From positions 96,001-160,000 of the IMG/VR virus record IMGVR_UViG_3300045988_155520: a DNA stretch of 64,000 nt. The stretch is one strand, 5' to 3'. The notes beneath the pieces are model-generated. The model searched no databases. It saw nothing but the letters and a program-made list of their open reading frames with translations, and was not told the DNA's origin. A program made the position numbers and the translations under genes. The stretch comes from a virus. Below are positions 311 through 38,760 of this stretch, piece by piece. Positions within the stretch are counted from its first letter, which is position 1. Each line of letters begins with the position of its first letter.

Positions 311-1015
311 ATGAATTTAGATAATATCATAAAGGAAAGTATTAACGAATTTTTAATCAATGAGTTGTTTAATAAGAATAAATACTCCAATCTCGTTAAC
401 TCAGCTATAATGAATCTTGAGAGCTGTTTATTCTATCCTCAAATAGAAAATATTAATGCTACCAATGTCCCTCAAGAATATATTGAAATGGCTTCTATTT
501 TTAATGCTGGTCATACTTTAGCTAATCAACTAATGGCAACATTAAAACAAATTCAAGCATCTATTAATTATGGCAAAAATGTAAAGGAATCACATATTTT
601 TGAAAGTCCTTCTATTCCATCTTTAATTCCATCACAATTACGTAATTGGAATCCTGTAAGAGATTTTGCTGTCGGTGCTAAAAAGGGTATGAATGCCGTT
701 GAAAAAACTTTTGGTAAAAATGGTTCACAAAACAACCGTACTAATAGTAAAGATATGAAAACGCAGGATAATGCATATATGATGCGTTCTGCTAATTTGA
801 AAAACATCCTTGATTCTATTTTGTCAAAATTTAATGGTCAAGTTCAAGATTTTGCTAACCGCTTTACGTCAGATAAGAACTTACAGAAACAACTCGCTCG
901 ATATGCTACATATATTAATACTGAAATTAAAAGTTGTTATAAGTTAATTACAGTAGCCAATAACCTACGTTATAGTGGTATTGAAAATGCAAATTTCAAA
1001 CAAATCAGAAAATAA
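311..1015 (+). CDS. hypothetical protein with shared N-terminal helix (CTS-like family)
   Basis: 234-aa ORF with ATG start. N-terminus MNLDNIIKESINEFLINE. Followed by a hairpin terminator. Confidence 0.6.
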   Translation: MNLDNIIKESINEFLINELFNKNKYSNLVNSAIMNLESCLFYPQIENINATNVPQEYIEMASIFNAGHTLANQLMATLKQIQASINYGKNVKESHIFESPSIPSLIPSQLRNWNPVRDFAVGAKKGMNAVEKTFGKNGSQNNRTNSKDMKTQDNAYMMRSANLKNILDSILSKFNGQVQDFANRFTSDKNLQKQLARYATYINTEIKSCYKLITVANNLRYSGIENANFKQIRK

Positions 1016-2612: not shown

Positions 2613-3218
2613 TTATATGAATTTATCAATTAAATTTATTTTTTCCACGAGAATAATATACTCTCCGACTTTTACTCTTTCTATAATTTTACAATTAACC
2701 AACTCTGCATAAATATCCTTATTAGCATTATTTTTAAAGCATATTTTTACATTTCTCTTTGGTTCATTCTGTAATACCCAATCTTCTCCATATGACTCAT
2801 ATGTATGTATTTCGTCATGTCCTCTATTCCATACACCAAACTCTGTTTCAAATTCTTCGTCAGAAGAGTTAAAATCCAGTCTAAAACGAGTAATAAACAT
2901 TTCTTGTTGAGAGAAATACGTAATTAGATTGTCTACAGTTTCTGGATTATTGTCCATATCATATAATAAACCTTGACACTGGGCATAACTAATTTTATCT
3001 TCTTTATAAGGTGATTTTTGACCCATCATATAAGTGTTACCATTGAATCCACTATGTGACCCAGTACTATCACTCATTGTTTCATAAATTATATCTTTGT
3101 ATTTCTCGTACTCGCTTACAAGTTTGTTCGTGTAGTCATTATCTTTATAGTAATTATTATCCACACTAAAAGAATCATCATTGTAATCAAGGTACGGCAT
3201 ATAAAACGTAACATTCAT
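2613..3218 (-). CDS. hypothetical protein (tail/baseplate operon)
   Basis: 201-aa ORF. Its ATG overlaps the stop of the upstream gene (ATGA at 3215-3218). Confidence 0.65.
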   Translation of the reverse strand: MNVTFYMPYLDYNDDSFSVDNNYYKDNDYTNKLVSEYEKYKDIIYETMSDSTGSHSGFNGNTYMMGQKSPYKEDKISYAQCQGLLYDMDNNPETVDNLITYFSQQEMFITRFRLDFNSSDEEFETEFGVWNRGHDEIHTYESYGEDWVLQNEPKRNVKICFKNNANKDIYAELVNCKIIERVKVGEYIILVEKINLIDKFI

Positions 3219-3721
3219 CGAATTTTATTTACATGTCTTTTATTCTTATTTTCTTCAAGGCGTATTTTTTGTCCTTGTATTTTGAGTCTACTTTTGAGTG
3301 TTTTCATGACTTCTTCAGGTCGTTTTCTAATATCACTCTCCCATATTCTCAAAAGAGGTATACCATGCATTAAAGCCCACTCATTTTTCTTTTTATCCAC
3401 CCATAAATCATGCTTCTGTGTTGGTGTCAATTTTTTACCTTCATAAATCTCTGGATTGACGTGATAATAATCACCATCGACTTCGATTAGTAGATTATGG
3501 TCTGGTAGATAAAAATCATAACTCCTTTGTATGTCTTTTGCTTCAAACTGCCACTGATATTTGATTTTAAGCTTCTTTAGAAATTCTGTTTCAAAATATT
3601 TTTCTAATTTACTTGTACCAAATTTAGGATGAGTTCTTAATGGTTTCCCATTAGATTTTCTCATCCTTGTTTTGGTTTTTTTTCGACTCTTATTATCTGT
3701 CTTTCTAATTGGTTGTTTCAT
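3215..3721 (-). CDS. Vsr/DUF559-like PD-(D/E)XK endonuclease (possible homing endonuclease)
   Basis: Basic N-terminus, then YDFYLPDHNLLIEVDGDYYH, the D..E.D/K core typical of the Vsr-like restriction endonuclease fold. First ATG at 3721 (the track start at 3730 is TTG). Confidence 0.55.
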   Translation of the reverse strand: MKQPIRKTDNKSRKKTKTRMRKSNGKPLRTHPKFGTSKLEKYFETEFLKKLKIKYQWQFEAKDIQRSYDFYLPDHNLLIEVDGDYYHVNPEIYEGKKLTPTQKHDLWVDKKKNEWALMHGIPLLRIWESDIRKRPEEVMKTLKSRLKIQGQKIRLEENKNKRHVNKIR

Positions 3722-5023: not shown

Positions 5024-5099
5024 CGAAATATAAATTAATAATATTATTATTTATTTTTTTAATATAAATATTATGATTCGTGTTTTTTAACTAAAATAA

Positions 5100-5131
5100 C
5101 TTGTGATATATTTCTAAAATAATTATTTTTG
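5100..5131 (+). promoter_or_regulatory. Bacteroidota-type promoter (CTTG-N20-TATTTTTG-CA)
   Basis: -7 box at 5124-5131 and a -33-like CTTG at 5100-5103, with exactly 20 nt between them. 25 nt upstream of the GTG start at 5157. Confidence 0.55.
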
Positions 5132-5156
5132 CATATATTTTATAAAAACAAGAATA

Positions 5157-7061
5157 GTGGATAGAGAAGAATTTATAAAAAGGTCGAAATTAGTATGGGG
5201 TGATAATATGTTTGATTATCGAGATGTCGTATATGTTAACACGTCTACTCCTGTTGTCCTATGGTATAATGGTGTTAAGTTTACTCAGCGACCTAAACAT
5301 CATTTAGCACATAGGAAACCTCTTTGTATGTCTGAAAAAAAGAAACATACAAGGGAGGAACTTATTGATAAGTTTAATAAAGTCCATAATTCCAAATACA
5401 CTTATGGTGAGTTTGTGTATAAAAATGCAAAAGAGAAGAATATACCCGTTTACTGTCATAATAAAGATAAATATGGTAATGAACATGGTATATGGTATAC
5501 TAATGCGACAAATCATCTCTCTGGATATGGTTGTCCGAAATGTAAATCTGATAAACTTTCTTCTACGTTCTCATCCAATAAAGAAGAATTTATAAGAAAG
5601 GCTAAACTTATACATGGAAATAAGTATGATTACTCTAAAATTATCTATATAAACAATTCTACTCCAGTTGAAATAGTTTGTCCTCAACATGGTTCTTTTA
5701 ATCAACTCCCTCATAATCATTTACAAGGCAAAGGTTGTCCTAAATGTATAGAAAGTAAACTTGAGGAAACTGTTAGAGCATTCTTAGAAGAGAACTCTAT
5801 AGAATTTAAGCAATATTATCATACTAATTGGTTAAAGCGTCAATCTTTGGATTTCTTTTTACCCCAATACAATTGTGCCATAGAATGTCAGGGCGAACAA
5901 CATTATAAAGAAGGATATTTTGGTGTAACATTAGAGAGTATTCAGGCATTAGATAAGACAAAATACTTGTTGTGTAAGAAGAATAAAGTATACTTATACT
6001 ATTTTGCTTCCGAAAAGTATAATATGGATGTATATACGAATATATCAGAACTATTTAATGATATTACTGGTAATTGTGTTTTCAAAGATAAAAATTTAAA
6101 CATTGTTAAGAATTTTCTTGCTACATTAAAGTGTAACTTCACTTATTCAATCAATAAAATTCATCATTCAGATGATTTTATAACCATACAGGATAGATTC
6201 TATTCTGAGGAAAATAAATTGATGATAATCTATGTGAATAGTTATGACCACCGTAAACGTTTTGCAAAATATAATTATAATGAGGGTATCTCACAAGACT
6301 ATTTTATAAATGAATCAAAGAAATACGAAAAAGACGGAATAAAATGTATATGGATAAAAGATTATGAGCTAAATGATAGTAGTACTTTAAAAGATGATAA
6401 TGGAAAATATCATTATGATTATCATCGTAAATGGGAAGTAATAAAATCTTACATTAAATATAGTGTTAATGAATGTCCTAATACATTATATGCACGTGAT
6501 TGTGAAGTACATGAAGTAAGTAATCAAGAACTAAAAGTATTCTTAGAAAAGAACTCATTACTTGGTTATAAATCGTCATCGGTGAACCTTGGATTATATT
6601 TGAAACGTGATAAAGGCACGCTTAAAAAAGGAACACTTGTAATGGTTTATACCTTTGGTGTTAATTACTTTAGTAGTACATCTGATAAACAGAATGTAGA
6701 AGTTATACGGGCTTCCACACTTATTGATTATCACATTAATGGTGGCGCAAGTAAACTAATGAAACACTTCTTTAAAAATTATTCAGTAATAAAAGTCAAA
6801 AATAAATTAATTAATACTGATTCTATCATTTATTATGTTGATGCCGACCATAATAATGGAAGTACGTTAGATTGTTTAGGATTTTCTCTTGTTTCGTGGA
6901 AAAGTGGATTTGTATATGTTAATTCAAATAAAATAACATCCCAAATGAGGAACCCATCAAAGTATAAAGAAATGCAAGAATCTTTGATGTCACATAAGTT
7001 TTTTGTTTCCCCTACAGCTGGCACCAAAGTCTATAAATTAATAAAAGCAGAAGATGTTTAA
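5157..7061 (+). CDS. homing-endonuclease-like multidomain protein (3 Zn-ribbon-type repeats + PD-(D/E)XK core + conserved C-terminal module)
   Basis: Repeats of the form EEFIxKAxxIHGNKYDYSxIxYxNxxTPVEIVCPxHGxFxQxPxxHLxGxGCPKC. Core is LDFFLPQYNCAIECQGEQH. Paralog of 58077-59789. Transcribed opposite to the flanking sheath and tube genes. Confidence 0.6.
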   Translation: MDREEFIKRSKLVWGDNMFDYRDVVYVNTSTPVVLWYNGVKFTQRPKHHLAHRKPLCMSEKKKHTREELIDKFNKVHNSKYTYGEFVYKNAKEKNIPVYCHNKDKYGNEHGIWYTNATNHLSGYGCPKCKSDKLSSTFSSNKEEFIRKAKLIHGNKYDYSKIIYINNSTPVEIVCPQHGSFNQLPHNHLQGKGCPKCIESKLEETVRAFLEENSIEFKQYYHTNWLKRQSLDFFLPQYNCAIECQGEQHYKEGYFGVTLESIQALDKTKYLLCKKNKVYLYYFASEKYNMDVYTNISELFNDITGNCVFKDKNLNIVKNFLATLKCNFTYSINKIHHSDDFITIQDRFYSEENKLMIIYVNSYDHRKRFAKYNYNEGISQDYFINESKKYEKDGIKCIWIKDYELNDSSTLKDDNGKYHYDYHRKWEVIKSYIKYSVNECPNTLYARDCEVHEVSNQELKVFLEKNSLLGYKSSSVNLGLYLKRDKGTLKKGTLVMVYTFGVNYFSSTSDKQNVEVIRASTLIDYHINGGASKLMKHFFKNYSVIKVKNKLINTDSIIYYVDADHNNGSTLDCLGFSLVSWKSGFVYVNSNKITSQMRNPSKYKEMQESLMSHKFFVSPTAGTKVYKLIKAEDV

Positions 7062-7463: not shown

Positions 7464-7500
7464 AAAAAATAAAAAAGGAGAACCAATACGATTCTCCTTC
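7464..7500 (-). terminator. intrinsic terminator after the tail sheath gene
   Basis: Minus strand reads AAGGAGAA-9 nt-TTCTCCTT followed by a T run (stems at 7475-7482 and 7492-7499). Confidence 0.65.
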
Positions 7501-7518
7501 TCTATTAATATAATATGT

Positions 7519-10500
7519 TTAGATATCATCAAATGATGCGCCCTCTGGAGTGAGGATAAAGTCTATTGTGATATACTCTAATGCACCATAAGGTTTGAAG
7601 AATATCTTAGCAGGCAACTCTCTTCTTTCACGTGATTCTACGGTATCATTTACCTCGATACGATAATCAGAAATACCTCTGTTGTTTCTAATATTATCCA
7701 GAATTGGAGTTACTGTTGACAAGAAAGTATTCTTACTTGTTGTATCATTAGGGTCGAAAATAAGACCTATACATGATATAGAGATAAGCTTTCTTAATCT
7801 TAACAATAAACGTCTAACAGCGATTCTGTTGAGCTGAGATTCACGCTTCTGAAGGTTCTTCTGACCCCAAATCTTAACACCGTCTGTTGCGAATGTCTTA
7901 ACAGGGTTAATTCTACCTTCGTACAGTTTATCCTCATCACCATTCTTAGTAATAGTTCTTGCTCTTACACATTCAACATTACCACGGTTAATACCTGCTG
8001 GTGCAAACCAAGGCTGATACTGATTATCTGTCTGAGCGAAGTTTCTTACAGCGTCTTTTGTTGCAGGGAGGTATATGTACTGATTATTATCTTGGTCAAA
8101 GTACTTAATCCAAGGATAATATGTACAAGCATAATTTGAGTCAATCTCCATATCCTCAAGATTATATACTGCTTCCTCTGCGCTGTACATTTCGTCTGTA
8201 AAGTCACTTGCGCCAGATGGTTTATCAGGAGTTGTAATCACATAGATTGAGTCAGCTCTCTCTTCCTCAATCATATCAATTGCTTCCTCTACTAATAACT
8301 TCTGATTAACATAGTCAATACCAGGAGTTGCAAATATATTGATATCTGTTTCCTCTGGATTAGCAAACTGTCTAATTGCAGATAAGTAAGCATACCAGTC
8401 TGATGTTATACCATTCTGATTCAATTTCAGTGACTTAGGATTCTGTATCTTGTCAAATGCATAACCTGCGCCACTATTTGCATCATAAGTACCTTTATAT
8501 CTTGATAATTTAAACTCATTGGTATTAGTTCTCTTATCACGATAAACATCCCATCCGTCGAAACCACCATAGAAATAAGTGGTGAACTTTCTCATATTAG
8601 CATTTTCATAAATTGAACCTGCCATTTGTTCCTCTGTACCGATGACTGGTGTCTCAGGTAAGTTTCTTGTTCTTGCATTTGTGCTAACAGCATCAAACTT
8701 ATAACCTTTTTCACCATCTACAGTTACATTAACAACGTGTTCTTTATCATCGAATGCTTTTGAATTGATACGAGAGTCGAGGTGGAAACCCTTTGTTAAG
8801 AGTGCAGGTACACCATCAACATAAGCTGCATTACCTTTAAATGTAAACATGTCAATATCTACACCTACCCAGCTTGAAAGACCGAAGTACTGTTTTCTAT
8901 TCTTAACTTCCTCATCATAGTCAAGGTTGTATCTGAGTTTAGGCTGCTCTATGTCATCATGAGCGTCACCATCTACAATTTGTACACCTGAGTAAGCTTG
9001 CTGAGGATACCCAAGGAAACCAGCAGGTACTGAAGTTCTTGCTGCTGTTGTCTCATTTACCTCAATAGTCACATATTTAGACTTTGTTTCATAAACACCA
9101 TCAAATGAACCAATTCTGTAAGCAACGTAGTCGCTCTGACCAGGAATCATAGAACATCTACCAAAGCGTTCGTAAACTCGTGGTGCTTCATCGGTATCAT
9201 TAATATCTCTAATTACAACATCGAATCGACCCTCGTCTGGACGGATATTCTCAATAGAAACTTTAACTTCGTTGTTAGAACTGTCACCGTCAGAGATAGT
9301 GTGGAATCTAAACAACTTGTTTACTTCCATTTTGTTGTAATCACCTTTCAAGTTAGAAACAATCCAAGGTGTTGATGCATAACGATAAGCTGACTTATAA
9401 TCATTCATATCGCATGCTGCAAATGTTATATCATCATTGGCTGTATTCATACGCCAATACATACCATCTGAACTATTCTTTACAAGTGTTCTCTTTGTTA
9501 CCTGAGTTGTTGCACCCTCTTCTGGATTTCTTAACTTATCGTACATAGGTGCTGTGTTTAAATCTCCACCTTTCTCACCCTTTGCTGTACGTTTTGCTTT
9601 CCAATCTTTCTCATAAAGTTCAACTGACTCAGCTAAATTGTAAGCATAGAAGTAATGTCTCTTACCATCAGTACCAGTATATTGTGCTACAGTGTAAATC
9701 TGTCCAGGTTCAACAATTACTTTTACAGGCTCTTGCATTGCTGCAGCATATGCAGCTTTACCAGCTTCTGTAGTTTTGTCGAATTTAGTTTCATCTGGTT
9801 TACCTACAATTCTATTATCAGGAATACTTGCAATGGCAACTGAAAGTCCATCTTTTTCAAGTTTCTTTGAGGCTAACTGTTCATATGTAATAGGCTGACC
9901 AGTTATATAGTTATAAGGATGTGCATGGATAGCCTGTCTTGTGCCATCTTTAGCTGCAACGCTTGCTCTCTTATCAGCCAAATATCTCAAACCAACATGT
10001 CGTCTTGTCAGACCCTCCTCCTGAAGTTCGATTAAACCAGATACCGCCTCAAGACCATTATAATCGTTGGTGTAATATACCTGATAAGCCTCAAGAGAGT
10101 TTGAAATAGCACTGATAGTACCCTCTACAATACCCTGCTGTAAAGATACATCGTAAAGTGTCTCTACAAATACAGGTGCATCACCGTCTTGTGCCTTGTT
10201 GCCTAATACGTTCAGAATATACTCTTTATCAGAAGGATTCAATGAAACTGGATATTCAAAATATCCGTCAGGATGTTTACCTTTCTCAACTTCTCCCCAT
10301 AAAGTAGTCAATTGTTCCTCTGTATGTGCGCCTAAGAAACCTGCTATTTTAAAACGTCCATAATTTAAGGTGTTAACTTGGAAACTTGAAGTATCTGGAC
10401 TTAAACCAAAACCTGAACATTCGTTACCAAGTGAATAAAGAGGCACATATGGTAATATTCTAAGTGCATCCATATTATACTTTCTTGGTGCTTTACAATC

Positions 10501-11022
10501 ATCAGCCTGTGTAGCTGCTGTTTCACCAACATTATATGTCAAAACATCATAAGAATTTGATGAACAAACACAAGTATCATCATTTGATGTTGACTTCATA
10601 TATGGATGATATGAACCACGAGAGCGAAGAACAGCAACTACCATCTTGCTTCCTCTTTCTGCATCATTTACGATTTCTCTATCAGCTGTAATTAACCATG
10701 CTGGACCAGCATTGTATCCACTAAGACCCAATACACGCACGAATTTCAGATTCTCTGATTCTGATAAATATGATTTTGCAATATATGGTGCTTCGTACTT
10801 AGGGTATTGACTTCCCTTAAATTTCTCTGTACTTGTACCACCAAATACCTCTTTGTATTCTCTCCAGTTTGGTGTATCAATTGCTTGGAAAGCAGGACCA
10901 CGCAAAGATTCTCCTACGAGTCCTAACTTTGTGATACCAAGACTCTTAACAGCATAGGTCATATCTATTTCACGACCATAAATACCAGGAGAAACGTGTA
11001 TACCTCTTGCATTATCTGCCAT
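7519..11022 (-). CDS. contractile tail sheath protein (T4 gp18-like), 1167 aa
   Basis: N-terminus has HVSPGIYGREID. C-terminus WFAPAGINRGNV..LYEGRINPV..LNRIAVRRLLLRL..ALEYITIDFILTPEGASFDDI parallels gp18 WMSPAGYNRGQI..LYQEAINPV..FDRINVRRLFNML..SINYITLNFVATATGADFDEL. Confidence 0.93.
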   Translation of the reverse strand: MADNARGIHVSPGIYGREIDMTYAVKSLGITKLGLVGESLRGPAFQAIDTPNWREYKEVFGGTSTEKFKGSQYPKYEAPYIAKSYLSESENLKFVRVLGLSGYNAGPAWLITADREIVNDAERGSKMVVAVLRSRGSYHPYMKSTSNDDTCVCSSNSYDVLTYNVGETAATQADDCKAPRKYNMDALRILPYVPLYSLGNECSGFGLSPDTSSFQVNTLNYGRFKIAGFLGAHTEEQLTTLWGEVEKGKHPDGYFEYPVSLNPSDKEYILNVLGNKAQDGDAPVFVETLYDVSLQQGIVEGTISAISNSLEAYQVYYTNDYNGLEAVSGLIELQEEGLTRRHVGLRYLADKRASVAAKDGTRQAIHAHPYNYITGQPITYEQLASKKLEKDGLSVAIASIPDNRIVGKPDETKFDKTTEAGKAAYAAAMQEPVKVIVEPGQIYTVAQYTGTDGKRHYFYAYNLAESVELYEKDWKAKRTAKGEKGGDLNTAPMYDKLRNPEEGATTQVTKRTLVKNSSDGMYWRMNTANDDITFAACDMNDYKSAYRYASTPWIVSNLKGDYNKMEVNKLFRFHTISDGDSSNNEVKVSIENIRPDEGRFDVVIRDINDTDEAPRVYERFGRCSMIPGQSDYVAYRIGSFDGVYETKSKYVTIEVNETTAARTSVPAGFLGYPQQAYSGVQIVDGDAHDDIEQPKLRYNLDYDEEVKNRKQYFGLSSWVGVDIDMFTFKGNAAYVDGVPALLTKGFHLDSRINSKAFDDKEHVVNVTVDGEKGYKFDAVSTNARTRNLPETPVIGTEEQMAGSIYENANMRKFTTYFYGGFDGWDVYRDKRTNTNEFKLSRYKGTYDANSGAGYAFDKIQNPKSLKLNQNGITSDWYAYLSAIRQFANPEETDINIFATPGIDYVNQKLLVEEAIDMIEEERADSIYVITTPDKPSGASDFTDEMYSAEEAVYNLEDMEIDSNYACTYYPWIKYFDQDNNQYIYLPATKDAVRNFAQTDNQYQPWFAPAGINRGNVECVRARTITKNGDEDKLYEGRINPVKTFATDGVKIWGQKNLQKRESQLNRIAVRRLLLRLRKLISISCIGLIFDPNDTTSKNTFLSTVTPILDNIRNNRGISDYRIEVNDTVESRERRELPAKIFFKPYGALEYITIDFILTPEGASFDDI

Positions 11023-11168
11023 AATATTATATCTATTTTAAAAATTATTTTATTTTTTCAACCACTATTTTATTAAAAAGTGTCATTATTGTTCTTTTAT
11101 ATAAATATTGTATTTCATTCAATAGTACATTATATAAGAGAAAAAATATGAATCGTTATATTTATAAT

Positions 11169-11474
11169 CTAATTCGCTTTATCCTTTTTGGTTTTTAATT
11201 CTATTAAATTTAAAAAATTGATATATTTTTGTACATTTAATTCAAATTTATTCTTCGATAATTTATCTTTATATTCACTAAGTAATTTAGTATCATGATA
11301 TTTCTCTCCGTATTCTATTTGCAAATTAAAAAACAATTCAGTAATTTCTCCGATTTCTTTAATTAACCCCTTTAGAGTTATCATATCATTAAAATCCAAA
11401 ACAAATTTATAGCTATCTTCTATTTCTAATAGTGTTTTTTCTAATTTGATAGCATCTTTTATCGTAACAATCAT
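11169..11474 (-). CDS. hypothetical helical protein
   Basis: 101-aa ORF in the neck/tail operon. Confidence 0.5.
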   Translation of the reverse strand: MIVTIKDAIKLEKTLLEIEDSYKFVLDFNDMITLKGLIKEIGEITELFFNLQIEYGEKYHDTKLLSEYKDKLSKNKFELNVQKYINFLNLIELKTKKDKAN

Positions 11475-11479: not shown

Positions 11480-12895
11480 CTATCTTTCTATAACAATTAT
11501 TTCTTCGTCTGCAATTTCATCAAGCGGACTTTCTGGAGAACTATCACCATCAATCACTGTATCAGGGTCAAAACCATGTAATATAACTTTAGAATCTTGA
11601 TAAAGGTCATCCCTTGTTATCTCTACAGTAATTTCATCCTCTTTATAAAAGTTAATTTCTTTACCGTCTAAAGCCATAGTTTCACCATTTATCTTCAATA
11701 CCATATCATATACGTTTTCTGTTTCTACAGTGTCTAATATCATGTCTGTATCAATGGTAAAACTTTCAGAACTATCACATGCATCAATATTGATTACAAA
11801 ACTTAGTTTCTTATTATAATACTTCTCTATTTCTTCTTCCTTGTCGCAACATTCATCTTCTGTATTACAAATTTTTACACAAGTATTTATATCTTTAAAT
11901 TTATTAGTAGGTATTTCTGGTTCACACGTTATTCCATTTGTTTCTGAGTCATCATATGTTATAATTCTCTCTCTATCTGTCATACGTGTATTATCATCTT
12001 TCATGGCATGTGAAAAACCATTAGATGAATTATCTGAATTAGGTCTATTGTCCATTTCGCTATCTGACATTCTTGATGATTTTATTTTGGATATGTTTTC
12101 ATCAAAGGTGTCAATAATACCACCGCCAGTATTACTTACCGCTACATCATCGAATGAACGCATAATGAATCTTGATGGTAAATGTTTAACATCAAAGTCC
12201 TCTGAACGAATGATATACGCTTTTAATTTTATTTTAAACGTCTGTGAATAATACTTTCTATCATCTATAGTGTATTCTGACTCATCAGATATATCTTCAA
12301 GTGTTATTGGCATAGGATGACCATTTGGAAAAATATAACTCTGTATACTTTGAAATTCATAATGTATTAATTCATTCATACGGTTAAGAAGTTCATACTT
12401 GTTACATACTATTCCGACCATATAATCAAAGTTAACTGCAAACGGTTGTTTCATCGTATACATATCATAGGCTTCAGTTCCATTTTCCTGAAGTACTGGT
12501 TCATAGAAAACTGCATAATCTCTATGCCCTGGTATATTCATATAAGGTCCTTGACTCTCACCCTTCTGTGGGTTAGGAGCACGTGTTATAGTTTTGAAAT
12601 TAAGTACAATACTACCAGATTCATCTAAATATTTCCATGTTTGTGAATATTCACTTATTCTTTGGCTACTATATAACTTATATGTTGGTAATTTCTTACC
12701 ATCATAAACTATATCTAATTTTTTGTCAACCCATTCAAAAAATTCTTGGTCTATATCTTCATATCCCACTGGCTTTGGCAATGGAGTTCCATGTTCAAGA
12801 ATCACTTTAGACATATTCCTGCGCTTTTCAACACCATATGAATTATGTCTAAGTTTCATTTTATTAATAAATGGTTTAGGTTGTATAAGTGCCAT
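11480..12895 (-). CDS. virion structural protein, function unassigned (acidic Cys-rich C-terminal half)
   Basis: 471-aa ORF upstream of the sheath gene; no confident family assignment. Confidence 0.6.
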   Translation of the reverse strand: MALIQPKPFINKMKLRHNSYGVEKRRNMSKVILEHGTPLPKPVGYEDIDQEFFEWVDKKLDIVYDGKKLPTYKLYSSQRISEYSQTWKYLDESGSIVLNFKTITRAPNPQKGESQGPYMNIPGHRDYAVFYEPVLQENGTEAYDMYTMKQPFAVNFDYMVGIVCNKYELLNRMNELIHYEFQSIQSYIFPNGHPMPITLEDISDESEYTIDDRKYYSQTFKIKLKAYIIRSEDFDVKHLPSRFIMRSFDDVAVSNTGGGIIDTFDENISKIKSSRMSDSEMDNRPNSDNSSNGFSHAMKDDNTRMTDRERIITYDDSETNGITCEPEIPTNKFKDINTCVKICNTEDECCDKEEEIEKYYNKKLSFVINIDACDSSESFTIDTDMILDTVETENVYDMVLKINGETMALDGKEINFYKEDEITVEITRDDLYQDSKVILHGFDPDTVIDGDSSPESPLDEIADEEIIVIER

Positions 12896-13848
12896 TATTT
12901 TTTCTCCTTTTTTGTAATGTTAATATCTTTGTCATTGAAGATAACATATATGTCGAAGCCTTGTTCATCATGTGCTATTAGTCCTGTGTACCCTATTTTG
13001 TTTAAAAAAGCACTTGCTTCTTTATCACTACCTAATATACTTGAAATTGTACCATAGATGCTACCTTCATCCTGACATTGTGTTATATATATGCATTCCT
13101 CATCCCAAAATTCTTGTTCGCATCCTTGATATGCTTCTTTTCCATACTCATCCTCTGTTGTATAATACTTGAAGAACTTTCTTGCAATACTCATACTTTC
13201 TCTTTTAGAAGGAGTTTTGTCATATGTCAGGAATTTATTACCAGAAATTTCAGCATGATAAATAATACCACCTCTTGCATATTCCTTGGCACATTCTTCA
13301 GATGTTGTGAAATACAGTCCATAACCAAATGCTTGATTTCCCCATCCGCTATTAAGATATTTCAAATCAAATTTATCAAAATCCTTGAAACTACCATGCA
13401 TTAAGTTAACTTCATTATTTAAGTTCTCAATCAATACATTTATAGTATTTAAACGTTCTTTTAAATTGCGTTTAGAGGCTTTATTTTCATACTTTAATGT
13501 ATTTGGATTATCACTATCTAATAAGTCCTGAGAAGCCCTTGAAATACCCTTATTCCAACCGCTATATTTAGGGTCTAAGGTTTTTTCTTTATGTTTAACT
13601 ACCCTTTTTGTTTTTTGTTTCTCTTTTTCTTGTTGTATCATTTGGTTAAGAGTATATCTATTTCTGTAAACTTCTTCAAAAGCAGCTTCTGACCACCTAT
13701 AATACTGATTTTTAACAAATCCTTTAGAATATAAGAATTTATCAATAATCTTAGGTGGAAACGTACCCCAACCATATTGTCTTAGCAATGAAGATATTTC
13801 ATTACTTGTTTTTTGTTTGAAATAATATTTTGAATCTTCCTTAATCAT
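12895..13848 (-). CDS. ADP-ribosyltransferase-like protein (PARP-type H-Y-[E/D] motifs)
   Basis: NLMHGS(F) and FGYGLYFTTSEECAKEYA resemble PARP LWHGS and FGKGIYFADMVSKSANY. The third motif is possibly GFDIYVIFND. Confidence 0.4.
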   Translation of the reverse strand: MIKEDSKYYFKQKTSNEISSLLRQYGWGTFPPKIIDKFLYSKGFVKNQYYRWSEAAFEEVYRNRYTLNQMIQQEKEKQKTKRVVKHKEKTLDPKYSGWNKGISRASQDLLDSDNPNTLKYENKASKRNLKERLNTINVLIENLNNEVNLMHGSFKDFDKFDLKYLNSGWGNQAFGYGLYFTTSEECAKEYARGGIIYHAEISGNKFLTYDKTPSKRESMSIARKFFKYYTTEDEYGKEAYQGCEQEFWDEECIYITQCQDEGSIYGTISSILGSDKEASAFLNKIGYTGLIAHDEQGFDIYVIFNDKDINITKKEKK

Positions 13849-13852
13849 AACT

Positions 13853-14395
13853 TTACGCTTTAAATTCGGATGTATCTACAGGGCTTGCTTGAATTGTACG
13901 GTAAAGTGGTATTGTACCCCATAGTGTATGACCATTATCATAATTGTTCTTACCGTCATTATTAACAACAAAATATATCATTAAATCTGGTTTTACCTGT
14001 ACACCAATATAATCACCATTTTTAATATCAACGTCTAATTCTTGAAGTGTTTCCTGATATACACTTACGGTAAGTTTACCAGTTTTTACATATGTACCTA
14101 ATTGTTTTGTTTTATCATATGATTTTAACTCTGGTTGTTCTATTTTATAAACACAATGTATTTCTACAGGTGTTTCATATTCTATGTTATTGACATCAGC
14201 TTCACCATAAACAGCATCGGTGTTTGTAGTACTTAATTTAACTTGATACAGAACTACTGTTTGATTCATATCCTGTTCTATATAATCTTTCCCAACCTGT
14301 AATTCAAAATCAAAAGATTCTTTATCGTAGAATAGATTATTTCTATTTATAGGAACTCTTCTCTTTGTTCCTTGATTGAATGTAATTTCTGCCAT
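13853..14395 (-). CDS. virion structural protein, function unassigned
   Basis: 180-aa ORF in the neck/tail operon. Confidence 0.55.
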   Translation of the reverse strand: MAEITFNQGTKRRVPINRNNLFYDKESFDFELQVGKDYIEQDMNQTVVLYQVKLSTTNTDAVYGEADVNNIEYETPVEIHCVYKIEQPELKSYDKTKQLGTYVKTGKLTVSVYQETLQELDVDIKNGDYIGVQVKPDLMIYFVVNNDGKNNYDNGHTLWGTIPLYRTIQASPVDTSEFKA

Positions 14396-14398
14396 TTC

Positions 14399-15109
14399 TT
14401 AACTATAATATTTATCAGCTACTTCTTCATTAAAACCATCATCTAAAATTACCATATGAGGTTCTCCGTCTCTTATCGTCATTCCCCAATTTGCTAATCT
14501 ACAGAAATCACCTACTGGTGGTCTATAATTCATTATATAATCATACAATTCATTAAGGATATAAGAATTTTCTTCATCATAATCTAACATATCCCTTAAA
14601 TTATCATCTGAAAGTATCTGACGTGTTTTGAATCTGGATGGGTTTGCAATTCTTCCAGCTGACAAAATAAACGCTTGAATTTGTTTCCATGTAAAACCTA
14701 TTACTTTTTTAAAGTCTTGTGCTTTTGCAGGTAGCACATACTCACTTACAATCCACTGAAATGAAGGTTCTTTTTCTCCATTATATGAATACATTGTTGT
14801 GTGTTCTCCATCATACATGAATATTTTAGGAAAAAGACTATAATTGTTTTTATAATAATCATTTAATGTTGAACATTCTGCCTCGTTCTGCGCAATACCT
14901 TTAACATTCTTAGCCAACTTCAACACACGCTCGTCATCCAATTGGAAAACCATTCTACTTGAACCACTACCAACTGGATTACCTAAAAAACTTTTGCAAT
15001 ATGCTACTTTTTTGTTGTAGCTAAGTCCATTGAGTTTATCTAAACTAAATCCACTCTTAACGGCTTCAAAAAGTTTATTTTGGCTTTCGTTTATAATAAT
15101 ATTTTTCAT
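14399..15109 (-). CDS. protein-kinase-like fold protein with CTS-like N-terminus
   Basis: G-loop GSGSSRMVF, VLKLAK lysine, QNEAE, hinge WIVSEYV, catalytic-loop-like GDFCRLANWG, DFG-like ILDDGF. N-terminus is MKNIIINESQNKLFEAV. Confidence 0.55.
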   Translation of the reverse strand: MKNIIINESQNKLFEAVKSGFSLDKLNGLSYNKKVAYCKSFLGNPVGSGSSRMVFQLDDERVLKLAKNVKGIAQNEAECSTLNDYYKNNYSLFPKIFMYDGEHTTMYSYNGEKEPSFQWIVSEYVLPAKAQDFKKVIGFTWKQIQAFILSAGRIANPSRFKTRQILSDDNLRDMLDYDEENSYILNELYDYIMNYRPPVGDFCRLANWGMTIRDGEPHMVILDDGFNEEVADKYYS

Positions 15110-15188
15110 TATTTTTACTTTTTATATAAATATTAACATATAAATCATATATACCATTTGACTTTATCAAAAAAAGTTTTATATTTTA

Positions 15189-15196
15189 TATAAATA
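15189..15196 (+). promoter_or_regulatory. TATAAATA (T4 late-promoter-like octamer) 15 nt upstream of the SNF2 start
   Basis: Exact octamer; no TTTG-N20-TAnnTTTG promoter in this spacer. Confidence 0.3.
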
Positions 15197-15211
15197 TAAA
15201 ATATAATTACA

Positions 15212-17203
15212 ATGGCATTGTCTTTAGATGAAATAAATCACTCACATAGGTTATTAAGAGAATATGATGGTGAAAACCCATATATTATTTCTCTTAAAAA
15301 TTCAGTGTACGCATATAAGACAAAGACTCTCAACAATTTTGAATGTGAGTTTATCTTAAACAATTATAATAAAGAACCACTGTTAGTTAATAAAATTGTT
15401 TCTATTATAAATTGGTGGGGCAAGAAGAAGCAAGAAGATTGGGAACTTGAATTTACCCCATCTAAGCTTAAAATTACTTATTATTTAGGAGAAACAAAAG
15501 ATTATTATTGTTTCTATTGTTTTTATCGTCAGAATCAAGATAAGGCTGTGATGTGTTTTGCCCCTAAAAAGGCAATACTTACAGATTTCCTTACTCCAGA
15601 CCATAATACAATGGAAATTGACTTTACACCATATAATCAAAAGAGTGGACGTACAATGATGCCTTATCAAGAAGAGGCAGTTAAGTTTCTTACTGCACAT
15701 CCTAAAGCAATTCTTGCATCCGCTATGGGTAGTGGTAAGACTTTTTCGGCTATAGTAGCAGCTCTTCATGGAGGTTATAAGCATATATTGATTATTGCAC
15801 CTGCATCTGTTAAAAAAACATGGGAAAAGGAATTGTCTCTTCTTGTTCCAAAAGAAGATATTACAATCGTGAATGGTTCAACATGGGTTGATGCAAGATT
15901 CACTATTATTAATTACGATATTCTTAAGAACTTTTATACTATCCCTAAACAGAAAATATATGTTAAAGAAATGAACGTTGATGATAAGGGTGAAGTTGTT
16001 TCAGAATATAAAGAAAAAGAGATTATTTCAAGAAATCGTCGGATAATTTGTGATGCAATGTCTGAATCTCAGTTGTTTCAGTCAAAATTCGACCTCATTA
16101 TTATTGATGAGGCACATAGATTGTCCAATACAACTTCTGGACGTTATAAAATCATTTCAGACTTTGTGAAAAGAGCAAGACCGACTGGTGTTTACGAATT
16201 AACTGGAACTCCAATAACTAATAGACCAATTAACTTCTTCAATCTGTTGAAGATTATTAATTGTCCGCTTGCTGAAGATTGGACTTATTATGTTGAAAGA
16301 TATTGTGACGGTAAGGCATTCTATAAAAAGAATGAAAGAGATGCACACACAGCACTTTATCTTAAAAAGGTTAAAAAAAGTAGTTGGTATGATTTATCTG
16401 AGAAACAAAAAGAAGAATTAAAAAATATTCTTTCTAAAAAATGTAAGAAGATATGGAAAACTGGTGGTTCATCTAATTTAGAAGAATTACAGGAATTACT
16501 TAAGCCGTACTATTTGCGTAGAATGAAAGAGGAATTTGGTAATATGGTTCCAAAAACCGTTAAAGTATTACATTATAATCTTACTTCTGAACAACGTGAG
16601 GAATATGATAGAGTATGGTGCGAATATCGAGATGCTAAAATTGAATCTGCTGACACATTCGAGGATGGAATGAAGGCAATGGTGGATGCTGAGAAGTATA
16701 AGAAGATTACTGAGGGCGTTCTTTTAAGACAATGGTTGGCACATGAAATGTTGGATAGAACAATTTCTCTTACAAGAAAATGTGTAGAACTTGGTCATAA
16801 AGTTGTAGTCTTCTGTTCTTTCGACGATGAAATTAATACACTTATGAAAGAATTTGGTGATATTGCGGTTAAACATAATGGCAAGATGATTAATAAATAT
16901 AAGGATAAATCAGTAGAATCTTTCCAAAATGACCCAAATATCAAAGTATTTGTAGGAAATATTAATTCAGCTGGTGTAGGTTTAACGCTTGTAGCATCCG
17001 ATGTAGCTATATTCAATAGTTTCTCTTGGGTTTCTGGTGATAATTTGCAAGCTGAAGATAGAATACATCGTTTGAATCAAACAAAGAAATGTACCGTTTA
17101 TTATCAAGTATTCTCTGATACTTTCTATGAGGAGATGTTAGATAAAGTAAGAGGTAAACAAAGTATTATTGATAATATAATTGTTACTGAAAATGAAAAA
17201 TAA
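15212..17203 (+). CDS. SNF2-family helicase/ATPase
   Basis: Motif I AMGSGKTFSA, motif II IIIDEAHRLSN, motif III LTGTPITNRPINFFNLL, motif VI QAEDRIHRLNQTK. Confidence 0.9.
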   Translation: MALSLDEINHSHRLLREYDGENPYIISLKNSVYAYKTKTLNNFECEFILNNYNKEPLLVNKIVSIINWWGKKKQEDWELEFTPSKLKITYYLGETKDYYCFYCFYRQNQDKAVMCFAPKKAILTDFLTPDHNTMEIDFTPYNQKSGRTMMPYQEEAVKFLTAHPKAILASAMGSGKTFSAIVAALHGGYKHILIIAPASVKKTWEKELSLLVPKEDITIVNGSTWVDARFTIINYDILKNFYTIPKQKIYVKEMNVDDKGEVVSEYKEKEIISRNRRIICDAMSESQLFQSKFDLIIIDEAHRLSNTTSGRYKIISDFVKRARPTGVYELTGTPITNRPINFFNLLKIINCPLAEDWTYYVERYCDGKAFYKKNERDAHTALYLKKVKKSSWYDLSEKQKEELKNILSKKCKKIWKTGGSSNLEELQELLKPYYLRRMKEEFGNMVPKTVKVLHYNLTSEQREEYDRVWCEYRDAKIESADTFEDGMKAMVDAEKYKKITEGVLLRQWLAHEMLDRTISLTRKCVELGHKVVVFCSFDDEINTLMKEFGDIAVKHNGKMINKYKDKSVESFQNDPNIKVFVGNINSAGVGLTLVASDVAIFNSFSWVSGDNLQAEDRIHRLNQTKKCTVYYQVFSDTFYEEMLDKVRGKQSIIDNIIVTENEK

Positions 17204-17608: not shown

Positions 17609-17632
17609 TATTAATATTTATAGTAAAAAGAT

Positions 17633-18194: not shown

Positions 18195-18234
18195 AATTTT
18201 TAAAATTATAGTTATAAATATTTAACGATAATAA

Positions 18235-18266
18235 TTTGTTAGTTTAGGAAATATGTTTTATTTTTG
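18235..18266 (+). promoter_or_regulatory. Bacteroidota-type promoter TTTG-N20-TATTTTTG-CA
   Basis: -33 TTTG at 18235-18238 and -7 box at 18259-18266, with exactly 20 nt between them. Confidence 0.65.
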
Positions 18267-18287
18267 CATAGAATTAAAATTGTATTT

Positions 18288-18743
18288 ATGATGCTTAATA
18301 AAACTTATTTAAAAGAATTATATAAGAGTTGTAATCATAAGTTCTTTAATGATGAACTTCCTAAAACTGGTTTATCGTTTAGAATAGACCATTCTATTCA
18401 TAATGTAGCAGGATGTTATTTCTCCACTAAAAATAATAAAATAAACACTGTGATTTATTTTAGTGATATGTATGAGTGGAATGAAGATTATCTTGAAAGA
18501 ATTATGTTACATGAAATGGTTCATATTTTTTTATATTCTTCAAATAGAAAAGCAGACTCTAAGCATGGTAAACGTTTTAAAGAGGTTTGTGTGAATATTA
18601 ATACCAAGTTTGGTGTTAATGTACCCTTAGACGGTTCTTTTATATCGCTTACTGACGAAGGTTTACAACAAAAAAATGCTAATAAAAAAACACACAATAT
18701 TTTCTTATCAGCACTTAATTACTTATTAAATAAGTTGTTTTAA
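18288..18743 (+). CDS. SprT-like zinc metalloprotease domain protein
   Basis: HExxH in RIMLHEMVHIFLY. The track start at 18264 is TTG inside the promoter, so the first ATG at 18288 is used. Confidence 0.6.
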   Translation: MMLNKTYLKELYKSCNHKFFNDELPKTGLSFRIDHSIHNVAGCYFSTKNNKINTVIYFSDMYEWNEDYLERIMLHEMVHIFLYSSNRKADSKHGKRFKEVCVNINTKFGVNVPLDGSFISLTDEGLQQKNANKKTHNIFLSALNYLLNKLF

Positions 18744-18745
18744 TT

Positions 18746-19153
18746 CTATTTGTATATTTGGTTGATTGCGTAGCTCTGATTACTTCTATTGTTCATTGCA
18801 CTATAGTTGATTCTCTTAATTAAATCACCAATAGTCATTTTGTCACCATATTTCTGTGCAAACGATTGTAATTGTTTAATCATCTCTTGTTTCTTGTCGT
18901 ATGCACCCTGCTCTTTATAATTTGTTTTTGCTGCCTGCCAACGTTTACCCAAATTATAGTTTACTTCTGTATCATTTGGTGCGTTATGTCTTTGTGATGC
19001 ATTTCCTACACCTCTACCGAAAAACGCATTAGCACCAGCCTTTACATTATCCCAAACGCCTTCATTTGTCATATTCTCTTGTAAAGCGGTTCTTACTGAA
19101 TTTTCTATAATATTATGTAAATCAGCCTCTGTTAGTCTTATAACTTGTTTCAT
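18746..19153 (-). CDS. hypothetical protein, CTS-like N-terminal family (paralog of 38101-38526)
   Basis: N-terminus MKQVIRLTEADLHNIIENSVRTALQEN versus MKKTIKLTEEELHQLIENTVYDILNEG. Confidence 0.65.
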   Translation of the reverse strand: MKQVIRLTEADLHNIIENSVRTALQENMTNEGVWDNVKAGANAFFGRGVGNASQRHNAPNDTEVNYNLGKRWQAAKTNYKEQGAYDKKQEMIKQLQSFAQKYGDKMTIGDLIKRINYSAMNNRSNQSYAINQIYK

Positions 19154-19165: not shown

Positions 19166-19212
19166 TTTTTAATATAAATATCATTTATTTTTTATTTATT
19201 TATCTTTTTACA

Positions 19213-19244
19213 TTTGTTTTTTTTATAAAGATATTGTATCTTTG
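19213..19244 (+). promoter_or_regulatory. Bacteroidota-type promoter TTTG-N20-TATCTTTG-CA (DNA polymerase)
   Basis: -33 TTTG at 19213-19216 and -7 box at 19237-19244, with exactly 20 nt between them. 60 nt upstream of the ATG at 19305. Confidence 0.7.
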
Positions 19245-19304
19245 CAACGTTTCTGATGCCATTGTTGATGTGGCTTTAAGAATATAATTTTTAAACAATA
19301 ATTT

Positions 19305-32997: not shown

Positions 32998-33276
32998 ATG
33001 AAGATAGTTAAAATAAATGAATCTCAGTTTGAAAAGTTATTTGAAACAAGTTCATTCGTTCAAACTGCTGGTGAAAGTAATTTAAGTCTGCCTGGTGCTG
33101 AACAAGCAGCCACTTCACCTAATGCAGCAATCATACATGATATAGACGGAAATGAAATAAATCAAGGACAAACTGATGATGAGTTAGCGCAACCGATAAC
33201 AGGTAAAAAGATTTCTAACACAATGTCAAGTTCTCAAAAATTTGGCTATGTTGGAAGTAATGGAAGGGGATTATAA
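32998..33276 (+). CDS. small hypothetical protein with CTS-like N-terminus
   Basis: The first ATG gives MKIVKINESQFEKLFETS. The track start at 32986 is TTG. Confidence 0.5.
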   Translation: MKIVKINESQFEKLFETSSFVQTAGESNLSLPGAEQAATSPNAAIIHDIDGNEINQGQTDDELAQPITGKKISNTMSSSQKFGYVGSNGRGL

Positions 33277-34464: not shown

Positions 34465-35385
34465 ATGAATCTGAATTTATATGAAATATTGAAGAATGTG
34501 TTAAATGAGGGGGTTTCCACAAAGGCGGTTCGTAAGGTTTTAGATGGTTCTATTGATGGTGTAGATAGTAACGGAAAAGCTAAGAATGTAGATAAAAATG
34601 GCAACCTCTTCTATCACTATGTTCGTATAACATATGATGATACTTTAGATAATCCTCATTCTGATAAACTTCCAGAACCTGTAGGAAATAGACTTGGAGT
34701 CAGAATTATTCAACCTTATGCGTTGGGAGAATATATTTCAGTTAATTCTAAAACTGGTAAAAAGAAACGTAGAAAAGTTTTAAGAGCCTATCAAATAAGT
34801 CCAGAGAGTAGACGAGGAGGTCCACGTTGGGATTTATTCAGACTTGATAGAATTTTATCTTGGGAACCTATACTTTCTAAAACTTTCAGTTATCCTGCAG
34901 AGGGTTATAATGAAAATGGAGATAAAACTTTAAATAAGGTTGACGTACAAGTTAAATTTAGTAATTACGAACGAAATCCTGATGAATATACCCAAGCTAT
35001 CAATAGACCTGGTGCTATAAAACAACAGTCTCAAAGCGATATGCTTGCACCTAAAGTATCTAACGGTAATATAGGTCAGACAAATGTTTTGAATCAACGT
35101 AAAAGAGTTGCTGGTAAAACTTATAAGAATAGTAAACGTGATAACATGGTTGCTAAAAATATAGAACTTACTAAAACTCAAGATAGATTTGATAATTCTT
35201 TATGGGATAAAGCTAATTCTGAAAAGATGAAGCAAGATTATAACAATTGGAATAATAAGAATCAAAAAGTTAAATCTGGTCCAATTAAAAATAATGATGA
35301 GGAAGATATGGAAGCATGGCTTAACACACCTCATAATGATTTTGACAAAGATATTACTTCTTATAAAAAAAATGAATTTATATAA
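34465..35385 (+). CDS. hypothetical basic protein with CTS-like N-terminus
   Basis: 306 aa, N-terminus MNLNLYEILKNVLNEGVS. Confidence 0.55.
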   Translation: MNLNLYEILKNVLNEGVSTKAVRKVLDGSIDGVDSNGKAKNVDKNGNLFYHYVRITYDDTLDNPHSDKLPEPVGNRLGVRIIQPYALGEYISVNSKTGKKKRRKVLRAYQISPESRRGGPRWDLFRLDRILSWEPILSKTFSYPAEGYNENGDKTLNKVDVQVKFSNYERNPDEYTQAINRPGAIKQQSQSDMLAPKVSNGNIGQTNVLNQRKRVAGKTYKNSKRDNMVAKNIELTKTQDRFDNSLWDKANSEKMKQDYNNWNNKNQKVKSGPIKNNDEEDMEAWLNTPHNDFDKDITSYKKNEFI

Positions 35386-38526: not shown

Positions 38527-38573
38527 AATAAACTTTTTACCTATTTAATTTTTTCTCTATAACTGGCCTAATC

Positions 38574-38753
38574 TATAATATATTAAATATATAATTAATA
38601 TATATAATATAATAATAATATATAGGCCTATAATAATATTATATATATAAAATAAATATATAATATAAATATATAAATTATATATTAAAAAATATATTAT
38701 AAAAAATTAATATATAAATTAAAAATAAAATATATTATATAATTATTTTTTTA
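38574..38753. repeat. extreme A/T tract (180 nt whose only G/C is one GGCC; 38629-38753 has no G or C)
   Basis: Read directly. Two GGCCTA motifs at 38564 and 38625. TA-rich low-complexity repeats (ATATATAA, TATAAAT) between divergent genes. Confidence 0.9.
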
Positions 38754-38760
38754 GAAAAAA

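Follow-up and report, generated by a model that had tools for sequence, protein, structure and literature searches.

A minimal protein-kinase-like enzyme and a solo ADP-ribosyltransferase-like protein at the head of a phage tail-sheath gene string: candidate virion-delivered effectors

A main route by which phages take over the cell and disarm its defences is the enzymatic modification of host proteins as soon as infection begins, as exemplified by Alt, gp0.7 and AcrIF11. Does the locus described here encode two further enzymes of this kind, and are they carried into the host by the virion? The locus lies in a stretch of 64,000 nucleotides (nt) of the IMG/VR virus record IMGVR_UViG_3300045988_155520 (positions 96,001 to 160,000 of that record; hereafter the window, whose coordinates are used throughout). 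Minus-strand open reading frames (ORFs) at 14399-15109 and 12895-13848, exactly as first read in a preliminary description of this DNA, encode a kinase-like protein of 236 amino acids (aa) and an ADP-ribosyltransferase (ART)-like protein of 317 aa. Contigs with kinase and ART genes reach ~250-270 kb and one is labelled as a human oral metagenome; the locus offers two concrete candidate effectors from an uncultured human oral jumbo phage. The explanation that we favour, with a probability of about 45%, combines three elements: both proteins would be real host-modifying enzymes, they would be expressed late, and packaging would be led by an N-terminal leader.

The kinase motifs of the 236-aa protein start at residues 47 (GSGSSRMVF), 62 (VLKLAK), 74 (QNEAE), 200 (GDFCRLANWG) and 221 (ILDDGF). 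An alignment-based AlphaFold2 (AF2) model was generated with a predicted local distance difference test score (pLDDT) of 82.6 and a predicted template modelling score of 0.78. When this model was compared with the PDB using Foldseek, all 50 matches listed were protein-kinase-like (PKL) folds, including APH(2''), PknB, CK1, Lpg2603 and MTR kinase; the E-values of 8e-4 to 3e-2 and TM-scores of ~0.3 give support at the level of the fold only. Among models of viral proteins (BFVD), the best matches were uncharacterised proteins of the large myoviruses RaK2 and CBB, followed by annotated phage kinases, gp0.7-type proteins included (E ~5e-4). The best sequence match of the kinase-family profile among solved structures was the Salmonella effector kinase SteC (E 0.0033), with an alignment across the Gly-loop and the β3 Lys. 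PHROG 4301, which has no annotated function, matched the window kinase at 4.5e-16. No Pfam or NCBIfam match was obtained for this protein, and 13 longer homologues were also without a match to a Pfam kinase model.

Conservation of the catalytic positions was counted over 253 domain instances from 232 proteins. In the Gly-rich loop GSGSSR (residues 47-52; 14954..14971), which was aligned to the SteC Gly-loop, G49 was present in 246/247 and R52 in 247/247 instances. The segment from the β3 Lys64 (VLKLAK; strand 61-66 in the model) to the αC Glu78 (QNEAE; helix 69-82), encoded at 14876..14920, was anchored by two invariant residues, K64 and E78 (250/250 each). The catalytic core GDFCRLANWGMTIRDGEPHMVILDDG (14435..14512) comprises Asp201, Asn207, two β-strands (208-213 and 216-221) and the DxG Asp223. 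Both D223 and G225 were invariant (246/246); of 247 instances, 241 had D in the D201 column and the other 6 had E, and the column of N207, which is present in the window kinase, was N in 57% and S in 27% of the family. The core layout GDFCRLANWG-MTIRD-GEP-HMVIL-DDG corresponds to a catalytic loop, β-strand, turn, β-strand and DFG, the same layout as is found in PKA. An almost canonical version, RDIRKQN...LDYG, was observed in the homologue from an E. coli jumbo phage. The polypeptide encoded in the window stops 13 residues past the DxG Asp, and hence the activation segment, the APE motif and helices F-I are missing. The full set of kinase landmarks ascribed to this protein by the preliminary description was therefore borne out for every motif quoted, with conserved catalytic columns, but does not extend to these C-terminal elements. 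Judged from the model, assignment of the protein as a minimal PKL phosphotransferase, which has kept the ATP-binding and phosphotransfer residues and has lost the substrate-binding C-terminal subdomain, is well supported.

The loss of this subdomain bears on the nature of the substrate. The PKL fold could act on a small molecule or nucleotide, or in other PKL chemistry such as AMPylation, instead of as a protein kinase. Such a function would fit with the best PDB matches of the model, which were the small-molecule kinases APH(2'') and MTR kinase (TM-scores of only ~0.3), with the absence of an activation segment and of the whole peptide-binding C-lobe, with the lack of a match to any Pfam protein-kinase model and with the architectures of long family members, in which fusions to Pol-β nucleotidyltransferase (5/8 examined), NUDIX or AAA_33 P-loop kinase domains were observed. 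We nevertheless consider it fairly unlikely, as PknB, CK1 and phage gp0.7-type kinases are also among the structural matches, the E. coli phage homologue has a catalytic loop of the eukaryotic protein kinase type (RD...N/DYG), and the C-lobe-less kinases of polyvalent proteins were placed closest to protein kinases by Iyer et al. (PMC5512222). The family itself is very large: a 50%-identity library yielded 3,890 clusters with E ≤ 1e-3, the domain occurs in tandem copies in many members, and there is no Pfam model. Some annotators already call it a kinase, with the homologue labelled 'putative protein kinase' in several GenBank records of RaK2-like and 121Q-like phages; the RaK2 homologue is ORF356. 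No experimental study of the family was found, and a family definition combined with an assay for these ~3,900 clusters would annotate thousands of phage genes.

The 317-aa protein (12895..13848, minus strand) was assigned to the ART-PolyVal family, of which it is a new solo member of a long form. Residues 149-309 matched PF18760 with an E-value of 1.3e-6 and a score of 29.7 bits, as compared to a gathering score of 31.2. A PF18760 match is on record for nearly all of 100 ART homologues, including those that are 45-57% identical, and one homologue (P0149) scored 79.6 bits. The AF2 model contains a confident C-terminal domain and a small confident N-terminal domain separated by a disordered linker. 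The catalytic domain (residues 146-317; 12898..13413; pLDDT >90) carries the motifs LMHGS (residue 149), FGYGLYF (residue 174) and GFDIYVIFND (residue 297), the last being the strand-5 motif (12931-12960). H151, located in strand 149-153, and Y179, in strand 178-181, were conserved in 100/100 homologues, Y176 in 95/100 and both Y301 and F304 in 99/99. Foldseek matches in the PDB included tankyrase 1/2, MbcT, cholix toxin, PARP13, PARP1/2 and, as the second-best match, AcrIF11 (6KYF). The H and Y motifs were also aligned to PARP12 by the ART-family profile, and the NCBIfam model for AcrIF11 (NF052490) gave a weak full-length match of 14.1 bits, far below its cut-off of 50. The top PDB match was chain B of 9k3a (1071 residues; E 9.5e-4, probability 1.0), part of the cyanophage A4 pre-ejectosome. 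Judged by its size this chain is probably gp28, an ejection protein with lytic transglycosylase and M23 peptidase domains and a C-terminal α+β domain to which its authors gave no assignment. The C-terminal domain of this packaged ejection protein may be ART-like.

Assignment of the third catalytic residue was less straightforward. The active site of PF18760 has been described as H in strand 1, Y in strand 2 and D in strand 5 (Iyer et al.; PMC5512222). GFDIYVIFND lies in the right strand of the model and reads D299-I300-Y301 in the window ART; D299 opens the predicted strand but is rare in the family, while positions 305 and 308 of the family are [ND] in 98% and D in 80% of members, respectively. 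Alignment to the prototype ART of the Roseovarius podovirus virion RNA polymerase (RPP1, GEIMVVKRD) covered the N-terminal half only and was ambiguous at strand 5, and a profile of the C-terminal half matched no solved ART in the PDB. Of the PARP-like H and Y motifs and possible third motif reported for this protein, the first two are invariant and the third occupies the expected strand, but a catalytic acid was not established.

These observations raise the alternative that the protein is a weakened NAD+-binding or NADase module, or a DarT-like nucleic-acid ADP-ribosyltransferase, and not a protein ADP-ribosyltransferase. At the residue preceding Y301, which is equivalent to the PARP catalytic Glu, 80% of the family have N and the window ART has I300; D299 is not conserved, and the PF18760 score falls slightly under the curated cut-off. 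MbcT, the toxin of the MbcT-MbcA pair, is among the structural matches, and MbcT degrades NAD+. The N-terminal domain (residues 10-87; 13588..13821; pLDDT ~85-94; helices 15-24, 32-41 and 54-87), present only in long-form homologues, has a DNA-binding-like strand-helix-turn-helix-wing pattern and in the model looks like a winged helix-turn-helix, although this likeness comes from the predicted structure. Among other ARTs, H-Y-I and H-Y-L PARPs are active mono-ARTs, and AcrIF11 is active with the non-canonical residues H-F-H-D. As the NAD+-binding H and Y motifs are invariant and closer homologues score far above the Pfam cut-off (79.6 bits for P0149), this alternative appears unlikely. No published biochemical test of an ART-PolyVal member was found; in the literature searched, two papers use the term, and both cite the family as a set of sequences and not for an assay. 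Some ART homologues are fused to a SprT-like metallopeptidase or have a duplicated ART domain, resembling small polyvalent proteins. A profile search with the N-terminal domain recovered nothing but truncated copies of these ART genes, and within the limits of this search a role for the domain as a delivery adaptor common to other cargo was discarded.

Chance resemblance of short motifs in AT-rich ORFs whose folds are unrelated to these enzymes was also considered. The PDB E-values obtained with Foldseek are modest (~1e-3) and the TM-scores low (0.2-0.35), and yet each match list is homogeneous, made up of kinase folds in the case of the 236-aa protein and of ART folds in that of the 317-aa protein, independent profile evidence agrees, and the catalytic columns are invariant over hundreds of homologues (R52, K64, E78 and D223 in the kinase; H151 and Y179 in the ART). 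Chance resemblance is therefore extremely improbable and can be regarded as effectively refuted. The fold and enzyme-class assignments of both proteins, taken alone, are highly probable, in agreement with the folds proposed by the preliminary description.

Having assigned both proteins, the organisation of their genes was examined. The kinase gene is the first in a leftward string on the minus strand. It is followed after 3 nt by a 180-aa ORF (13853..14395), after a further 4 nt by the ART gene, and then by a 471-aa ORF (11480..12895) whose start overlaps the ART stop codon (TAATG). A 5-nt gap separates the latter from a 101-aa ORF (11169..11474), so that gaps from the kinase gene through the 101-aa gene range from -1 to 5 nt. 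After 146 nt the string is closed by the tail sheath gene (7519..11022; 1167 aa), which was identified by PF04984 and by PHROG 23 at 2e-53. A terminator-like hairpin directly after the sheath stop codon (7468..7506) is the sole one on the minus strand between 15109 and 7468, and the tail tube gene lies farther downstream. On its 5' side the kinase gene faces an SNF2 helicase gene (15212-17203, plus strand; matching PHROG profiles of 1,200-2,300 positions) across a divergent region of 102 nt. The statement that both enzyme genes lie between structural genes on the same strand was thus correct insofar as they belong to one tight same-strand string ending in the sheath gene, but the kinase gene is the first of this string and faces SNF2, and the neighbours have no structural match. 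The sheath protein is unusually long, and its sheath-domain matches are confined to the C-terminal ~500 residues, beyond an unassigned N-terminal region of ~650 residues.

The order ART-471aa-101aa-sheath recurs in distant relatives, represented by a 387-kb and a 422-kb contig (L010 and L011), with identities of 41% and 57% for the ART, 48-52% for the 471-aa protein, which is a conserved partner of the ART, and, in the 422-kb contig, 48% for the 101-aa protein and 61% for the sheath. The kinase and 180-aa genes are absent from the operon in both, and DNA polymerase B is found divergently upstream of the ART in the place of the kinase gene. The 180-aa gene is present in the close relatives L001-L003. 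This distribution indicates that the kinase gene is a lineage-specific insertion at the promoter-proximal end. It is solely by synteny with the sheath gene that the 180-aa and 471-aa neighbours could be called structural; searches of annotated phages with tblastn and of PDB sequences with phmmer yielded nothing usable for either protein. At the nucleotide level the 9.8-kb region matched no annotated phage, and neither enzyme has a paralogue within the window.

The timing of expression was assessed from promoter-like motifs. The 9-mer ATATTTATA occurs 16 times in the window, with 13 copies in the ~5% that is intergenic, and 12 of these 13 lie 11-138 nt upstream of a gene on the same strand. It ranked first of 126 9-mers of the same composition, for which the mean was 1.6 such matches. 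The genes behind it include the tube gene, the sheath gene (11100..11108, minus strand, 78 nt upstream), a scaffold-like gene ahead of the capsid gene and, twice, the kinase gene (15125..15133, minus strand, 16 nt upstream of the start, with a second copy at 15189-15197). Other sites were located on the minus strand at 5063-5071, 18213-18221, 19173-19181, 38664-38672, 52555-52563, 56911-56919 and 63474-63482 and on the plus strand at 17614-17622 and 56916-56924. The T4 late-promoter word TATAAATA was not significantly enriched (27 matches as compared to 17.8 ± 4.3). From its distribution ATATTTATA is a candidate phage promoter element, maybe a late one. As the kinase-sheath unit is preceded by the motif of the tube, sheath and scaffold genes, both enzymes are probably made late, and the kinase and ART genes probably form a single, tightly packed transcription unit with the sheath gene.

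A second type of element, the TAnnTTTG box (e.g. TATCTTTGCA), was observed at 19209-19245, 18259-18267, 38785-38793, 59794-59802, 5124-5132 and 18-26, upstream of DNA polymerase B, a SprT-like gene, HNH endonuclease genes and others. We take these boxes to resemble the -7 element of the Bacteroidota housekeeping promoter, a likeness that suggests a Bacteroidota host and a separate, earlier class of promoters. The intergenic region at 38527-38822 (296 nt) is AT-rich, with repeated ATATAT/TTATTA blocks and AGGCC after each.

Evidence for a route into the virion came from the N-terminus of the kinase. The first 15 codons (15065..15109, minus strand; translation verified) encode MKNIIINESQNKLFE, in which L-x-E stands just before Ala16, and which is a candidate capsid-targeting propeptide. 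Residues 1-13 have a pLDDT of <50, the leader being disordered and outside the fold. Its consensus in the kinase family is MK-I-I-x-x-E-x-Q, a variable spacer and h-x-E-A. The motif [LIVMF]-x-E-[AG] was present upstream of the Gly-loop in 69/72 solo kinase homologues, at a distance of 32-33 residues in 58, and occurred within the first 30 residues of only 8/65 window proteins. The suggestion that this element is shared with other proteins was borne out: a hidden Markov model (HMM) of the leader, built from the kinase family, matched the proteins encoded at 32998-33276 (E 1.4e-4) and at 38101-38526 (E 2.2e-3), the product of 18746-19153 was matched by the HMM of the full kinase family (E 3.7e-4), and similar N-termini were found on ART-PolyVal proteins of other architectures (P0133, P0161, P0170 and P0171). 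On sequence grounds the leader is therefore a conserved, portable element that ends in a motif of the type cleaved by gp21.

Leader-type N-termini of the form MK-x-I-x-h-x-E...h-x-E (e.g. MKIVKINESQFEKLFE|T) were noted on the small proteins encoded at 32998-33276 (plus), 18746-19153 (minus) and 38101-38526 (minus), and possibly on those at 311-1015 (plus), 34465-35385 (plus) and 36055-36777 (minus). None of these six candidates has a PHROG match, and the product of 18746-19153, the sole one searched against annotated phages with tblastn, gave no match there. By their N-termini they could be cargo resembling the internal proteins of T4.

In T4, the N-terminal 10 residues of IPIII serve as a transferable capsid-targeting sequence (CTS) sufficient for packaging of foreign proteins, gp21 cleaves after the Glu of L/I-X-E, and Alt, a packaged ART, also loses an N-terminal propeptide (PMC9026906). 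The components of a similar head were detected in the present phage. Matches to PF03420 (Peptidase_S77, the gp21 family), PF07230 (Portal_T4) and PF07068 (Gp23) were found in L012 and L013, next to the capsid gene of the window, which is also adjoined by a T4-type terminase gene. Upstream of the capsid gene, a highly acidic, scaffold-like protein of 469 aa (62031-63440, minus strand) contains 13 [LI]-x-E motifs as compared to 6.2 expected (z = 3.1; second of 65 proteins), and the capsid protein (59877-61901, minus strand) has I-S-E|A at residues 58-61. Both features fit a conserved protease specificity, and such a composition would be anticipated for a scaffold that a gp21-type protease degrades.

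The following sequence of events can be proposed. The conserved 15-residue leader would act like a T4 CTS and bring the kinase into the prohead, where the phage's gp21-type (S77) protease would cut it off at L-F-E|A; the trimmed kinase would then be ejected with the DNA and phosphorylate host targets as the next infection begins. In the manner of T4 Alt or AcrIF11, the ART would use NAD+ to modify a host protein, for example a component of defence or transcription, and would be either co-packaged or active late in the producing cell. The function of the leader as a CTS, late expression, and ejection followed by action on host proteins are all three inferred. Virion delivery is accordingly put forward only tentatively for the kinase, and it is somewhat less likely for the ART.

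Several observations weigh against this proposal. The ART lacks a leader of the kinase type; conservation of h-x-E-A could have structural reasons alone; and two points described above, the small-molecule character of the top kinase matches and the ART residue before Y301, also count against it. Further observations can be accommodated by a different explanation, in which both enzymes are real but accessory, moron-like proteins that are not virion cargo, act in the producing cell and are encoded by chance at the promoter-proximal end of a tail operon; their targets late in infection could be, for example, host defence or metabolic proteins, or phage proteins. The kinase and 180-aa genes are missing from the operon of the 387-kb and 422-kb contigs, and the flanking 180-, 471- and 101-aa genes have no demonstrable structural role, with no match in Pfam, PHROGs, NCBIfam, PDB sequences or annotated phages. 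Kinase homologues in L004 (40% identical), XacN1 and E. coli jumbo phages have small genes of accessory or early type as their surroundings, and several records place the homologue inside the direct terminal repeat. The XacN1 paper makes no mention of its homologue, ORF170. In phAPEC6, the homologue gp500c was not among the 62 virion proteins identified by electrospray ionization tandem mass spectrometry in published work, and a short-form ART homologue (P0147) is found in a non-structural context.

An accessory role for both enzymes is a realistic possibility, but three features speak against it. The leader is conserved and portable and ends in a gp21-type cleavage motif in a phage that has an S77 protease; the ART is kept at the head of the sheath module across relatives whose ARTs are 41-57% identical; and the MK-I-I leader is likewise missing from the unpackaged enterobacterial homologues, as was seen for gp500c. 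With packaging of late-made enzymes as the preferred explanation, a coherent reading of the family can be offered: its function would be needed at the very start of infection, for which the present lineage would package a late-made protein and the enterobacterial jumbo phages would supply the same function from the homologue in the terminal repeat, a position that we take to indicate early expression.

A wider generalisation is somewhat doubtful at present, namely that the leader is a portable capsid-targeting propeptide in jumbo phages with T4-type heads that infect oral and gut Bacteroidota, and that it loads a changeable set of ejected cargo consisting of the minimal kinase together with some fusions of SprT and ART and several small proteins. 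If it were true, the kinase would provide the first case of a phage protein kinase that enters the host ready-made in the virion. If the leader is a capsid-targeting signal, a simple sequence rule would predict ejected cargo across a group of uncultured phages and, as has been done with the T4 CTS, the leader would provide a handle for the packaging of foreign proteins.

Mobile elements were observed in and around these modules. Homing-endonuclease genes of the HNH/DUF723 type break up the tail and head modules, and insertion sites of HNH/DUF723 and IS605/TnpB type were located in the window at 5208-7061 (plus), 3215-3721 (minus), 58077-59789 (minus) and 63533-63919 and in relatives at 13631-14839 of L001 and 7873-9222 of L002. 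Relatives that are otherwise near-identical differ in where IS605/TnpB-type genes lie; in L001, for example, such an insertion separates the 471-aa gene from the 101-aa gene. These insertions indicate that the structural region tolerates mobile elements. Inteins were also noted, one in the T4-type portal gene (L012, 1195-3852), and an intein-splicing domain was seen in the DNA polymerase B of the 422-kb relative (L011, 3513-7883).

Comparisons with known systems place each protein close to, but distinct from, a described precedent. The window ART shares with ART-PolyVal (PF18760; Tox-ART-HYD2 clade; Iyer et al. 2017, PMC5512222) the profile match, the invariant His and Tyr, a phage origin and a location next to virion genes. 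It differs in being a solo 317-aa protein instead of a domain of a giant polyvalent protein, in its lineage-specific N-terminal helical domain and in its score of 29.7 as against 31.2 bits. A solo SprT-like metallopeptidase gene (18288-18743, plus strand) lies near the SNF2 helicase, kinase and ART genes; SNF2, SprT, kinase and ART are thus four adjacent solo genes whose domain types are among those listed for polyvalent proteins by Iyer et al. AcrIF11 (6KYF), which modifies N250 of Csy1 and whose key residues have been described as H-F-H-D, is likewise a small phage ART, one that acts on a single host defence protein; it was the second-best structural match and gave the weak full-length NCBIfam alignment. 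The likeness is at the level of the fold only, as the window ART has an extra helical insert (residues 215-284) and the N-terminal domain; target and host differ, and nothing at the window locus points to CRISPR as the target.

For the kinase, the C-lobe-less kinases of phage polyvalent proteins, to which Iyer et al. (2017; PMC5512222) found protein kinases to be nearest, are similar in having lost the C-terminal subdomain while keeping the catalytic residues. The markers of that clade are a conserved Gln in the last N-lobe strand, a Glu before strand 2 and an insert between the catalytic His and Asp; the candidate position for the Gln (E123) is E in 215/250 and Q in 29/250 instances of the window kinase family. 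SteC was the best sequence match among solved structures and is similar in its reduced C-terminal subdomain and effector context, but it keeps a small C-lobe with an activation segment whereas the window kinase ends 13 residues after DxG. T7 gp0.7, a phage kinase for host takeover and anti-defence, is represented by gp0.7-type proteins among the structural matches (E ~5e-4); a sequence relationship was rejected, with a score of -1.1 bits for the kinase-family HMM against gp0.7. As gp0.7 is an early gene product and is not known to be part of the virion, it can serve as a functional precedent but not as one for delivery. Of the two precedents invoked by the preliminary description, T4 Alt therefore holds, as a packaged ART, and gp0.7 does not hold as a model of delivery.

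The idea of virion delivery is modelled on T4 Alt and on the hypothesis that Iyer et al. put forward for polyvalent proteins. Alt is a late product that is packaged in the head, where gp21 trims it at L/I-X-E, and that is ejected together with the DNA (PMC9026906). The window phage resembles T4 in its head module, with an S77 protease, Portal_T4 and Gp23, and in having a portable leader that ends in L-x-E|A. Alt belongs to the R-S-E clade, whereas the window ART is of the H-Y type without the Arg-Ser-Glu active site, and the leader is found on the window kinase and not on the window ART. At 15-30 residues the leader is unrelated in sequence to the T4 CTS, and the packaging route that it would serve is, by comparison with that of T4, a candidate one.

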